From NCBI RefSeq assembly GCF_003334765.1, contig NZ_QOWT01000030.1: a stretch of 49,226 nt of DNA; one strand, given 5' to 3'. Shown here piece by piece: positions 6,001-9,000 of the stretch. Source of the DNA: Escherichia coli. GTDB taxonomy: Bacteria > Pseudomonadota > Gammaproteobacteria > Enterobacterales > Enterobacteriaceae. Positions within the stretch are counted from its first letter, which is position 1; each line of letters starts with the position of its first letter. A program made the position numbers.

Positions 6001-9000
6001 TTATGCTGAACCGTTGCTAGCGCTTGAAGCCTCCGTTGAGGCGTTGAGCGAGAAAGTGGCCGAGCATTTGCGGGCGATGGGGCTGGAGTGGTGATGGTGG
6101 ATTTAATGGTGAATGAGCAACGGTCGAGTACGGCGGGGAAAGATGTGCCTGCGGGGTATAAACTGACTGAGGTGGGCGTGATTCCTGAGGATTGGGATTG
6201 CGTACCATTTGGTAATCTGTTTAAAACAAACACAAAGAAAAAAAAAGTCAGCGATTATGAGCTAGTTTCATTTATTGGGATGCAGGATGTTAGTGAAGAT
6301 GCACAATTAAAAAATAATACTCAACTTCCTTTTAAAGAAGTTAAAAGTGGTTTTACTTACTTTGAAAAAGGGGATGTTTTATTAGCTAAAATAACCCCTT
6401 GTTTTGAAAATGGAAAAGGATGTCATACCGCTGATTTACCTACTAATGTAGGTTTTGGGAGTACGGAATTTCATGTATTAAGGGAAAATGAAGACTCCGA
6501 TTCTCGCTTCATCTATTTTTGGACAACTGATAAAAAATTCAGAGCATCACTGGAATCTGAAATGGTGGGAAGTGCGGGACACCGTCGTGTGCCGCTAGTT
6601 GCTATAGAAAAATATTTGATTCCATGTCCCCCAAATTTGCAAGAGCAAAGTGCTATTGCTGATTCATTATCTGATATTAATAATTTTATTCTAGCTCTAG
6701 AAAAGCTTATCGTTAAAAAACAAGCCATTAAAACCGCTACTATGCAGCGACTACTGACTGGTAAAACCCGTTTGCCACAGTTTGCGTTGCGCAAAGATGG
6801 CTCTGCTAAGGGATATAAAAAGAGCGAGTTGGGGGAGATTCCTGAAGATTGGGTAGTCACAAGCATTGGACAATTTACTGACTGCTGTGCTGGTGGAACT
6901 CCGAGTACTAAAATTTCAGCATATTGGGGAGGAACTCATCCTTGGATGAGTTCCGGCGAATTACACCTAAAACAGGTGTATGCTGTAGCCGATTATATAA
7001 CCGACGAAGGGCTTGTTAACTCCAGTACAAAGTATGTGCCTAAAAATTCTGTATTAGTCGGATTGGCAGGACAAGGAAAGACTCGAGGGACTGTAGCAAT
7101 TAATCGCATTGAATTATGTACTAATCAGTCTATTGCTGCGATTTTCCCCAGCAAACATCATTCCACAGAATTCCTGTTCTATAACCTCGACAGTCGTTAT
7201 GAGGAACTGAGAAGTTTATCTACTGGTGATGGGGGGCGTGGTGGGTTGAATCTTACTATTATCAGGAAATTACATCTTGCATTTCCGCCAAAAGAAGAAC
7301 AAACCGCCATCGCCACCATCCTCTCCGATATGGACAAGGAAATTCAGACCCTGCAACAGCGTCTGGACAAAACCCGTCAGCTTAAACAGGGGATGATGCA
7401 GGAGTTGTTAACCGGGAAAACCCGCTTAATATAAAAGGGAAACCTATGGCCTATGACTACAGCGCCAGCCTCAACCCGCAAAAAGCCCTGATCTGGCGTA
7501 TCGTCCATCGGGACAATATCCCGTGGATTCTGGATAACGGGCTGCACTGCGGCAACAGTCTGGTGCAGGCGGAAAACTGGATCAATATCGGCAACCCGGA
7601 GCTGATCGGCAAGCGTGCCGGGCATCCGGTACCTGTCGGAACGGGCGGGACACTGCATGACTATGTGCCGTTTTATTTTACCCCCTTCTCGCCAATGCTG
7701 ATGAACATCCACAGCGGGCGCGGCGGCATTAAGCGACGCCCCAATGAGGAGATCGTTATTCTGGTCAGCAACTTGCGGAACGTGGCAGCACACGACGTGC
7801 CCTTCGTGTTTACCGACAGCCATGCTTACTATAACTGGACCAACTACTACACCAGTCTGAATAGTCTGGACCAGATCGACTGGCCCATTTTGCAGGCACG
7901 GGACTTTCGCCGCGATCCAGACGATCCGGCTAAATTTGAACGCTATCAGGCAGAGGCGCTAATCTGGCAACACTGCCCGATCTCTCTGCTGGATGGGATA
8001 ATTTGTTACAGCGAAGAGGTCAGGTTACAATTAGAACAATGGCTGTTTCAGCGTAATCTAACAATGTCCGTTCACACACGGGCTGGATGGTACTTCTCAT
8101 GATCACATATACACAAGGCAATTTACTGGACGCACCGGTGGAAGCTCTGGTGAATACGGTTAATACCGTCGGTGTCATGGGGAAAGGCATCGCGTTGATG
8201 TTTAAAGAGCGCTTCCCCGAAAATATGAAAGTCTATGCCCTCGCCTGCAAACAAAAGCAGGTGATCACCGGCAAAATGTTCATTACCGAAACCGGGGAAC
8301 TGATGGGACCGCGCTGGATTGTTAATTTTCCGACCAAACAGCACTGGCGCGCTGATTCCCGCATGGAGTGGATTGAAGATGGCTTGCAGGACTTACGCCG
8401 CTTTTTGATTGAAGAGAATGTGCAGTCCATCGCCATTCCACCACTGGGCGCAGGCAACGGTGGTTTGAACTGGCCGGACGTTCGGGCGCAGATTGAATCT
8501 GCCCTTGGCGACCTTCAGGACGTTGATATCCTGATTTACCAACCGACTGAAAAATACCAGAACGTTGCCAAAAGCACTGGCGTAAAAAAGCTCACTCCCG
8601 CCAGAGCCGCCATCGCTGAACTGGTGCGTCGCTACTGGGTATTGGGGATGGAGTGCAGCCTACTGGAAATCCAGAAACTGGCCTGGCTGTTACAACGCGC
8701 CATTGAGCAGCATCAACAGGACGATATCCTCAAACTGCGGTTTGAAGCTCACTATTATGGCCCCTATGCGCCCAATCTGAACCATCTGCTTAATGCGCTG
8801 GACGGCACCTATCTTAAAGCCGAGAAACGCATCCCGGACAGCCAACCGCTGGATGCGATCTGGTTTAACGATCAGAAAAAAGAACACGTTAATGCGTATC
8901 TGAACAACGAAGCCAGAGAGTGGCTACCTGCGCTGGAGCAGGTCAGCCAGTTAATTGACGGCTTTGAATCGCCGTTTGGTCTGGAGTTGCTGGCAACCGT

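Follow-up and report, generated by a model that had tools for sequence, protein, structure and literature searches.

Reassortment of target-recognition cassettes in the hsdS gene of the Escherichia coli RRDM defence island

Results

Gene content of the island

The window, that is, the whole 49,226-nt stretch of Escherichia coli DNA analysed here (NCBI RefSeq assembly GCF_003334765.1, contig NZ_QOWT01000030.1), carries the RRDM defence island with the gene order rptR-hsdM-hsdS-darT-darG-hsdR-M48, matching E2348/69 in order and products (Table 1). In EPEC E2348/69 this island has been described as consisting of RptR, a Type I restriction-modification (R-M) system, DarTG2 and M48 (Zhang et al., Nucleic Acids Res 2025, PMC12255303). 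All seven genes are common to the two loci in identical order, and their DNA identity is 97-99% except in the first target-recognition domain (TRD1) of hsdS. Profile scores exceeded the respective cut-offs for HsdM (TIGR00497, 283 bits versus 243), HsdR (TIGR00348, 546 versus 285), DarT (262 versus 150) and DarG (451 versus 250), and both hsdM and hsdR are intact alongside hsdS. The hsdS start is the ATG at position 6094 (RefSeq-equivalent), which gives a 1-nt overlap with the hsdM stop.

Upstream of these genes, the window possesses two operator repeats, whereas E2348/69 has three. The RptR operator is characterized by the repeat TTTAGCTAA with the core TAGCTA, and the RptR site tolerates some flexibility solely at positions G5 and C6 (PMC12255303). 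The promoter in the window has one exact TAGCTA, at 3399-3404, adjoined by TAGCTG; an RRDM promoter would be expected to have at least two TAGCTA sites. The rptR gene is shortened by the in-frame loss of 63 bp between GGTCTGA repeats, a deletion which takes out residues Thr57-Lys61, named as the DNA-recognition helix residues of RptR (PMC12255303), and leaves no full-length 79-aa RptR. The same deletion junction also occurs in O157:H7 and other genomes.

Table 1 Features of the RRDM island and of its hsdS gene, in window coordinates.
Feature	Position	Strand	Remarks
Two tandem 9-bp direct repeats, TTTAGCTAA and TTTAGCTGA	3397..3414	+	Match RptR operator repeats, RRDM promoter
rptR, island repressor	3446..3616	+	56 aa instead of 79 aa (alignment, ORF)
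hsdM	3656..6094	+	812 aa; HsdM_N and N6_Mtase domains plus ~360-aa C-terminal extension
hsdS	6094..7434	+	446 aa; two Methylase_S domains
N-terminal conserved frame, ends GVIPEDW	6094..6196	+	GC 0.53, GC3 0.59; left recombination anchor of TRD1
Internal direct repeat	copy 1 6153..6196, copy 2 6810-6853	+	80% identical
TRD1 cassette, allele a (NCTC86 type)	6197..6641	+	Homology breakpoints; GC 0.353, GC3 0.23
A9 homopolymer in TRD1	6238..6246	+	Codes for KKK
Central conserved region, 5′ half	6642..6750	+	GC 0.32, GC3 0.19
Central conserved region, 3′ half, and pre-TRD2 repeat, ends GEIPEDW	6751..6852	+	GC 0.48
TRD2 cassette, allele x (E2348/69 type)	6853..7292	+	GC ~0.425, GC3 0.32
Putative imported E2348/69-like recombination tract in NCTC86-like backbone	6853..7860	+	Parental-type SNP runs
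C-terminal conserved region	7293..7434	+	E2348/69 type in the window
darT, DNA ADP-ribosyltransferase toxin	7446..8102	+	Profile match
darG, antitoxin with macrodomain	8099..9166	+	Profile match
hsdR	9185..12280	+	1031 aa
M48/YgjP-like metallopeptidase gene	12280..12996	+	Last in island

The hsdS gene is built of a conserved frame and two exchangeable cassettes

The Methylase_S domain (PF01420) is found twice in HsdS, at residues 31-204 (E 1.9e-9) and 250-424 (E 3.7e-23). BLAST comparison with seven E. coli loci revealed homology breaks at 6196/6197, 6641/6642, 6852/6853 and 7292/7293; outside the TRD blocks identity is 97-99.9%, and within them sliding identity is either 100% or 2-55%, allele by allele. 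The central conserved region is itself divided: its 5′ half exists in three DNA types, each co-travelling with a TRD1 allele, and the stretch comprising its 3′ half and the pre-TRD2 repeat is nearly invariant across alleles. Both copies of the internal direct repeat stop exactly at a TRD start, and each of the two TRDs is followed by a conserved helical region with the motif EQ.AIA...LLTGK.RL. The organization would correspond to a conserved frame that carries two replaceable cassettes. The frame would consist of the N-terminal part, the C-terminal region and, from the central region, its 3′ half; one cassette would join TRD1 to the 5′ half of that central region, and the other would be TRD2.

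As the first-pass annotation had anticipated for an exchanged domain, the two TRDs have different nearest relatives when aligned separately. Identity is 100% between TRD1 and the NCTC86-type allele, and likewise 100% between TRD2 and the allele of E2348/69 type. Single-TRD protein searches gave matches of at most 260 aa, with the full-length alleles absent, and the nearest relatives within the species were therefore taken from DNA searches. Outside E. coli the relatives are distinct as well: among the matches listed, the next relatives of TRD1 are a metagenome protein (65%) and Aeromonas (57%), and those of TRD2 a Logan assembly (94%) and sequences at 78-79% (e.g., Methylotuvimicrobium).

The island junction was detected in 249 of 5,426 complete genomes, distributed over three TRD1 alleles (a, b and c in 71, 139 and 39 genomes, the 71 counted at a threshold of at least 99%) and three TRD2 alleles (x, y and z in 12, 231 and 6). 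The a-x pair of the window occurs together in only one complete genome. Eight inspected alleles comprise the pairs a-x, a-y, b-x, b-y, c-y and c-z, and, by the four-gamete test, every pairing of a or b with x or y exists: a-x (the window and one locus), a-y (one), b-x (two) and b-y (one), the pair counts other than that of a-x coming from the marginal totals and the eight inspected loci rather than from a reading of all 249 alleles. Examples are PapRG-04-4 and the strain of GCA_000158415.2 for a-x, JCH8249 for a-y, E2348/69 for b-x and UK_Dog_Liverpool for b-y. The TRDs of the window are exchangeable cassettes, and their reassortment is directly visible in these combinations.

Parental-type runs place the exchange around TRD2

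NCTC86 and E2348/69 differ at 157 distinguishing sites. Up to 6836 the window is NCTC86-type; all 19 sites in 7303-7860 are E2348-type, and from 8082 onward most sites are NCTC86-type again, which locates the left crossover in 6837-6852, within the nearly invariant central stretch, and the right one in 7861-8081. TRD1, along with the 5′ half of the central region, is of allele a in the window and of allele b in E2348/69, and TRD1 is joined to NCTC86-like backbone at 99.9-100%. The parent switch flanks TRD2: from hsdM to the N-terminal hsdS frame (3592-6196) identity to E2348/69 is 96.8%, compared with 100% for TRD2, and the two islands are identical or nearly so from TRD2 through the C-terminal conserved region into 5′ darT. 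These runs point to a latest swap, relative to the nearest, NCTC86-like backbone, that brought TRD2 and not TRD1, the direction being relative to the sampled relatives, such that an unsampled parent could alter which segment counts as imported. PapRG-04-4 has the a-x pair too, but an NCTC86-type C-terminal region and a crossover at 7294-7303, and is therefore a separate recombinant.

Low GC extends over both cassettes

The first variable region had been singled out in the first-pass annotation as AT-rich compared with the flanking conserved repeats and TRD2, a contrast taken as consistent with its horizontal exchange. Greedy binary segmentation of GC gave no split, because a short mid-sequence low-GC pulse defeats single-split tests, and was replaced by a two-breakpoint likelihood scan. 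Within the operon, the scan placed the best-supported low-GC interval at 6207-7303 (GC 0.388 inside versus 0.520 outside); its log-likelihood ratio was 33, whereas the highest value among 100 shuffles was 12.8. Composition is thus non-uniform, and the contrast with the N-terminal side holds, but the block is not confined to TRD1: it reaches through the 5′ half of the central conserved region and takes in TRD2 as well. That 5′ half (6642-6750) is as AT-rich as TRD1 (p=0.58 between them), and the third positions of TRD2 differ from those of the pooled conserved frame (p=5e-5). The GC contrast between TRD1 and TRD2 is marginal (Fisher p=0.03 at all sites, 0.09 at third positions). The lowest GC, 0.277, is reached in the first ~190 bp of TRD1 (6207-6394), where the best internal split falls; 4 of 500 shuffles reached it. 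The AT-rich block stands out inside the operon, in which hsdM, darT, darG and hsdR have a GC of 0.52-0.54 and a GC3 of 0.61-0.67, but not inside the whole window, a GC mosaic in which 7.7% of equally sized segments are as AT-rich as 6130-6700.

Low GC is shared by the other alleles and by homologs in other hosts. The three TRD1 and three TRD2 alleles of E. coli are all AT-rich (GC 0.35-0.42). Homologous TRDs have a GC of 0.38-0.46 in Aeromonas, where the operon has 0.57, of 0.31-0.41 in another genome with an operon GC of 0.46, and of 0.36-0.46 in a Chloroflexota metagenome-assembled genome (MAG) with an operon GC of 0.64 and a conserved tail of 0.63-0.70. Across these four host backgrounds, low GC is a trait of TRD cassettes generally and not a tracer of the exchange in the window. 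The suggested horizontal exchange is upheld in part: breakpoints and four allele combinations speak for TRD exchange, but composition does not mark it and TRD1 does not appear to be the part recently exchanged.

It is conceivable, and we put this forward tentatively for the four backgrounds covered (operon GC 0.46, 0.52, 0.57 and 0.64), that TRD DNA keeps a nearly host-independent, AT-rich composition (~0.35-0.46), with the conserved HsdS frame adopting that of its host. No earlier report of AT-rich TRDs came out of a literature search. If the pattern is general, TRDs would form a cassette pool common to bacteria and archaea, which either outruns the adjustment of base composition between hosts or is held AT-rich by selection. 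The latter, with AT-rich synonymous sites maintained, for example, through rare codons limiting HsdS translation or through H-NS silencing and not through rapid circulation from host to host, we consider unlikely: a TRD composition that stays in its range while the frame follows operon GC from 0.46 to 0.64 fits selection and circulation alike, but selection at the level of expression is not expected to spare the conserved parts within one mRNA.

Somewhat less probable still is an import of TRD1 alone from an AT-rich donor, with the contrast to TRD2 and the conserved repeats marking the transfer. TRD1 is the domain with the lowest GC, differs from TRD2 over all sites, and has distant relatives outside E. 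coli (at most 65%) that do not pin down its source. However, its AT-richness is shared by TRD2, by the 5′ half of the central region and by every other TRD allele, and amino-acid content predicts ~0.055 (about three-quarters) of the observed GC gap of 0.07 between TRD1 and TRD2. After re-encoding with operon codon usage, the synonymous GC deficit is nearly equal in the two (-0.14 in TRD1, -0.12 in TRD2). Moreover, it is TRD1 that is continuous with the NCTC86-like backbone and TRD2 whose flanks switch parent.

An AT-richness imposed by the amino-acid make-up of DNA-binding TRDs (Lys, Asn, Ile, Phe), and hence devoid of historical signal, is very unlikely as well. Consistent with some such contribution, the GC expected with operon codon usage is 0.490 for TRD1, lower than for TRD2 (0.545) and the N-terminus (0.556), and GC1 is 0.48-0.49 in the TRDs compared with 0.59 in hsdM. 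Amino acids cover just 0.03-0.07 of a GC drop of 0.10-0.17, however, and GC3 is 0.23-0.32 in the TRDs versus 0.57-0.67 for the frame and the surrounding genes; in the 5′ half of the central region the protein is conserved, yet GC3 is 0.19.

On-site switching, through either repeat slippage or inversions that involve several hsdS copies, is extremely improbable even though TRD1 contains an A9 run at which two NCTC86 assemblies differ (A9 versus A8), for TRD alleles vary from strain to strain and not inside one locus, and the remaining indels between assemblies all lie in homopolymers too, a sequencing-error pattern. A phase-variation switch at the A9 run was accordingly rejected, since A8 versus A9 looks like a homopolymer sequencing error, and shufflon-type switching was rejected with only one hsdS gene in the 49-kb window, where tblastn and blastn with all eight alleles found neither a second hsdS copy nor a silent TRD.

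Discussion

The hsdS gene of RRDM is very probably a conserved frame with reassorted cassettes, its a-x form in the window representing an NCTC86-like operon with an E2348/69-like import and a hybrid target. The frame matches the operon in composition and both cassettes are AT-rich; in this model, DNA transfer between strains, followed by homologous recombination in the conserved frame, would reshuffle the three TRD1 and three TRD2 alleles. For the window, ~1.0-1.25 kb of E2348/69-like DNA would have recombined into an NCTC86-like operon, bringing in TRD2 together with the C-terminal conserved region and two-thirds of darT from its 5′ end, with the left crossover lying within the 16 bp that encode IPEDW. 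By the established rule of one half-site per TRD, the product should recognize a hybrid bipartite target composed of the TRD1-a half and the TRD2-x half, with the spacer unchanged, and by established Type I logic such a pairing would be expected to give a new specificity.

The mechanism has been textbook knowledge since the 1980s, the island is a published one, and public databases already contain this exact protein. StySQ reportedly obtained its hybrid specificity from StySP and StySB by recombination in the hsdS conserved regions, and the same is said of the EcoR124 family. In these classical hybrids and in the window alike, two TRDs are split by conserved regions in which the crossovers lie, and whole TRDs are inherited in new pairings. 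The window differs in its enzyme family, and its hybrid target would follow from the domain rule. In the PDB search, its HsdM (812 aa) matches EcoR124 M at E 1e-64, a closer hit than EcoKI M at E 1e-21.

Within single species, small TRD pools are likewise recombined across lineages in the hsdS genes of Staphylococcus aureus and Xylella fastidiosa (bioRxiv 10.1101/2022.09.01.506293), a report that also contains a general statement on hsdS conserved-region recombination. In comparison, RRDM is a single island-borne system with just 3 x 3 alleles, and it sits with a toxin-antitoxin pair that was partly exchanged along with TRD2. At a larger distance, TRD2 also strongly matches the S subunit of Methanocaldococcus jannaschii (1YF2). 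The TRD2 half aligns along its full length, with a best domain alignment of 114 bits (whole-chain E 3e-61), and both proteins have the motifs KK(S/T)E(L/I)GEIPEDW, PP.EEQ..IA.IL and LLTGK.R. 1YF2 differs in being archaeal and from another operon, and the TRD1 half matches it weakly (38 bits).

A search for methylome or restriction data for these hsdS alleles found none, the RRDM paper (PMC12255303) gives no recognition motif, and the NCTC86 methylome/genome paper reports no Type I motif. The hsdM gene of NCTC86 is annotated as frameshifted.

Low GC inside hsdS should not be taken to indicate a recent import of one particular TRD; the exchanged segment is identified by flanking-SNP analysis. 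The 3 x 3 allele set of RRDM appears ideal for assigning half-sites from a handful of methylomes, and TRD swaps in this island can drag along part of the adjoining darT toxin gene.

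The RRDM island and its hsdS gene

The seven genes at 3446-12996 form an operon that recurs in the annotation of many E. coli chromosomes and was characterised in strain E2348/69 as the anti-phage 'RRDM' island (PMC12255303), which is the island of the window. HsdM, HsdR, DarT and DarG all score above the curated cut-offs of their NCBIfam models, and HsdS carries two Methylase_S domains, corresponding to its target-recognition domains TRD1 and TRD2. The exact HsdS protein is already present in NCBI and Logan (E. coli, hundreds of contigs), and one public genome, GCA_000158415.2, matches the window identically across the whole of hsdM-hsdS. 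Since the window has intact copies of hsdM, hsdS and hsdR, its Type I system is probably active.

Genes of the island and base composition of the hsdS segments in the window
Feature	Coordinates	Strand	GC	GC3	Remark
rptR	3446-3616	+			repressor of the island
hsdM	3656-6094	+			812 aa
hsdS	6094-7434	+			446 aa; start codon ATG shares one base with the hsdM stop
N-terminal conserved frame	6094-6196		0.53	0.59	
TRD1	6197-6641		0.353	0.23	
Central conserved region, 5' half	6642-6750		0.32	0.19	
Central conserved region, 3' half, and linker	6751-6852		0.48	0.47	
TRD2	6853-7292		about 0.425	0.32	
C-terminal conserved region	7293-7431		0.50	0.64	
darT	7446-8102	+			
darG	8099-9166	+			
hsdR	9185-12280	+			
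M48/YgjP-like peptidase gene	12280-12996	+			

Cassette borders and allele census

In a DNA search of hsdS against 5,426 complete E. coli genomes, the whole gene matched in just one, PapRG-04-4 (98.8%), and parts only in many others. Seven loci were then fetched and compared. Wherever their homology to the window is interrupted, the break falls at one of four positions, 6196/6197, 6641/6642, 6852/6853 and 7292/7293; outside the TRDs the operon is 97-99.9% identical to the window, and a sliding comparison shows a given TRD to be either 100% identical or all but unalignable. The eight alleles examined comprise three TRD1 types (a, b, c) and three TRD2 types (x, y, z), and the pairs observed are a-x, a-y, b-x, b-y, c-y and c-z. 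Since a and b each occur with both x and y, recombination must have taken place between the two domains. Together with the shared breakpoints, this supports the domain shuffling in hsdS that the first-pass annotation had proposed. Its suggested check, to align the domains separately, gives different nearest relatives: TRD1 matches the NCTC86 type (a) and TRD2 the E2348/69 type (x), each at 100%.

Separate DNA searches of the complete E. coli genomes gave 71 a, 139 b and 39 c for TRD1, and 12 x, 231 y and 6 z for TRD2. Each set adds up to 249, which is also the number of genomes with the island junction, so the cassette pool in these genomes appears to be just 3 x 3. Within-class identity is at least 99%, barring one TRD1-b record at 95-99%, and the a-x pair of the window is the rarest combination (1/249). 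The 5' half of the central region occurs as three DNA types, each always travelling with its TRD1 type, and the 3' half and the 44-nt repeat preceding each TRD are nearly invariant, which suggests about 6172-6750 as the left unit of exchange. Crossovers would fall most naturally in the invariant stretch 6751-6852.

Low GC is common to the TRD cassettes

GC is not uniform along hsdS, and the genes neighbouring it have GC 0.52-0.54 and GC3 0.61-0.67. A two-breakpoint likelihood scan placed the best low-GC interval of the operon at 6207-7303 (GC 0.388 inside versus 0.520 outside; log-likelihood ratio 33, with a maximum of 12.8 among 100 shuffles). The interval begins with TRD1 and closes with TRD2. 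An AT-rich block thus does exist, but it takes in the two variable regions as well as half of the central 'conserved' region. The earlier description of TRD1 as strongly AT-rich thus holds against the N-terminal frame, but the 5' half of the central region is lower still, and TRD1 lies only marginally below TRD2 (Fisher p=0.03 for all sites, 0.09 for third positions). With the amino acids re-encoded in operon codon usage, the expected GC is 0.490 in TRD1 and 0.545 in TRD2, which accounts for ~0.055 of the 0.07 gap between them, and the synonymous GC deficit is nearly equal (-0.14 and -0.12). GC is lowest (0.277) over the initial ~190 bp of TRD1.

AT-richness extends to all six TRD alleles of E. 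coli (GC 0.35-0.39 for the TRD1 types, 0.36-0.42 for the TRD2 types) and to related cassettes elsewhere: an Aeromonas hydrophila TRD 57% identical to TRD1-a (0.38-0.46 versus 0.56-0.58 in its neighbours), a 54%-identical TRD of another genome (0.31-0.41 versus 0.46-0.49 in hsdM) and a TRD of a Chloroflexota MAG 58% identical to TRD2-x (0.36-0.46), where the conserved tail of the same gene has 0.63-0.70 and hsdM 0.64. Low GC is a property common to the TRD cassettes of this family, whatever the host, and therefore cannot tell which domain moved or when. The cassettes may pass between hosts faster than their composition adjusts, or the composition may be maintained by selection; the apparent host-independence of TRD composition is the one idea here that deserves a larger test. 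Amino-acid content accounts for only a minor part of the low GC, and the low GC3 of the TRDs argues against a purely amino-acid-driven composition.

Among named relatives of TRD1-a outside E. coli, the Aeromonas cassette (positions 1-724 of the GCA_053373585.1 locus, operon hsdS-darT-darG-hsdR-YgjP) is the closest. It occupies the TRD2 position of its homologous DarTG-containing operon, suggesting that related TRDs can sit in either position of the S subunit.

TRD2 as the probable domain of recent exchange

Outside the TRDs, the operons of NCTC86 and E2348/69 can be told apart at 157 sites. The window has the NCTC86 state almost everywhere in 3592-6836, the E2348/69 state at 19/19 sites in 7303-7860, and the NCTC86 state again at nearly all sites from 8082 onward. 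The simplest reading is that about 1.0-1.25 kb of E2348/69-like DNA entered an NCTC86-like island as one tract, which would comprise TRD2, the C-terminal conserved region, the hsdS-darT spacer and two-thirds of darT, with the left crossover inside 6837-6852 (the codons for IPEDW) and the right one inside 7861-8081. Compared with the nearest sampled backbone, the domain exchanged recently is TRD2 and not the more AT-rich TRD1, whose composition had been taken as the mark of exchange. Import of TRD1 alone from an AT-rich donor is argued against by these flanking sites and by the AT-richness of the central 5' half, TRD2 and all other TRD alleles. As the spacer and the 5' two-thirds of darT (7446-7860) were swapped to the E2348/69 type along with TRD2, exchange of a specificity cassette can bring toxin-gene variation along.

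PapRG-04-4 has the TRD pair of the window but NCTC86-type sequence directly 3' of TRD2; because its crossover lies at 7294-7303 and it has extra differences in 6749-6836, it is a separate recombinant. The rptR region (3200-3600) shows affinity to O157:H7-type alleles, unlike the rest, so the island is a mosaic with several junctions.

On-site phase variation of hsdS is poorly compatible with the data, as the 49-kb window holds no second hsdS copy or silent cassette, and the sole repeat-length difference seen, in the A9 homopolymer of TRD1 at 6238-6246 (A9 in CP019778, A8 with hsdS split in OZ489144, both assemblies of NCTC86), is likelier a sequencing error, since the other inter-assembly indels (4610, 4452, 6515, 6627) are likewise in homopolymers.

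Predicted specificity

Hybrid Type I specificities are known from classical experiments. The mechanism at the hsdS of the window is the textbook one, TRD reassortment through recombination in conserved regions, and is nothing new in kind. The TRD2 half is similar over its full length to the Methanocaldococcus jannaschii S subunit 1YF2 (whole-chain E 3e-61), indicating a wide distribution of this TRD type and frame. Each TRD of a Type I enzyme recognises one of the two half-sites of the bipartite target, and the spacer between them is determined by the conserved helices (PMC12255303; bioRxiv 10.1101/2022.09.01.506293). The a-x enzyme would read the TRD1-a and TRD2-x half-sites, with the spacing of its relatives because the inter-TRD region is 70 aa in 8/8 alleles, and its specificity is predicted to differ from that of a-y and b-x strains. 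The one relevant methylome, that published for NCTC86, has no motif of Type I, which agrees with the annotation of its hsdM as frameshifted. Such hsdM frameshifts occur in several public island copies, in short C or T runs, for example at the equivalent of window 4610 in NCTC86 (CP019778) and of 4452 in another copy, and may be either real inactivations or assembly errors.

Further features of the island

A 63-bp in-frame deletion in rptR between two GGTCTGA repeats (junction about 3590; 56 aa versus 79 aa) takes out Thr57-Lys61, the DNA-recognition helix of RptR (PMC12255303), and the promoter has only two operator repeats (3397-3414), the second altered to TAGCTG; a derepressed island is predicted from these changes. 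O157:H7 and other genomes share this deletion junction, and RefSeq labels the gene there as partial.

Among solved structures HsdM is nearer to EcoR124 M than to EcoKI M. Its known domains (HsdM_N, N6_Mtase) stop near residue 445 of 812, and solved HsdM proteins have 445-638 aa; the C-terminal extension of ~360 aa (window 5006-6094, residues ~450-812) has no Pfam match and a seemingly helical or coiled-coil character. An aerobactin (iuc/iutA) region, common to many E. coli chromosomes at 99.8-99.9%, adjoins the island at 14000-34000, and GC varies from 0.33 to 0.59 per kb across the 49-kb window, as expected of a pathogenicity or defence island region.
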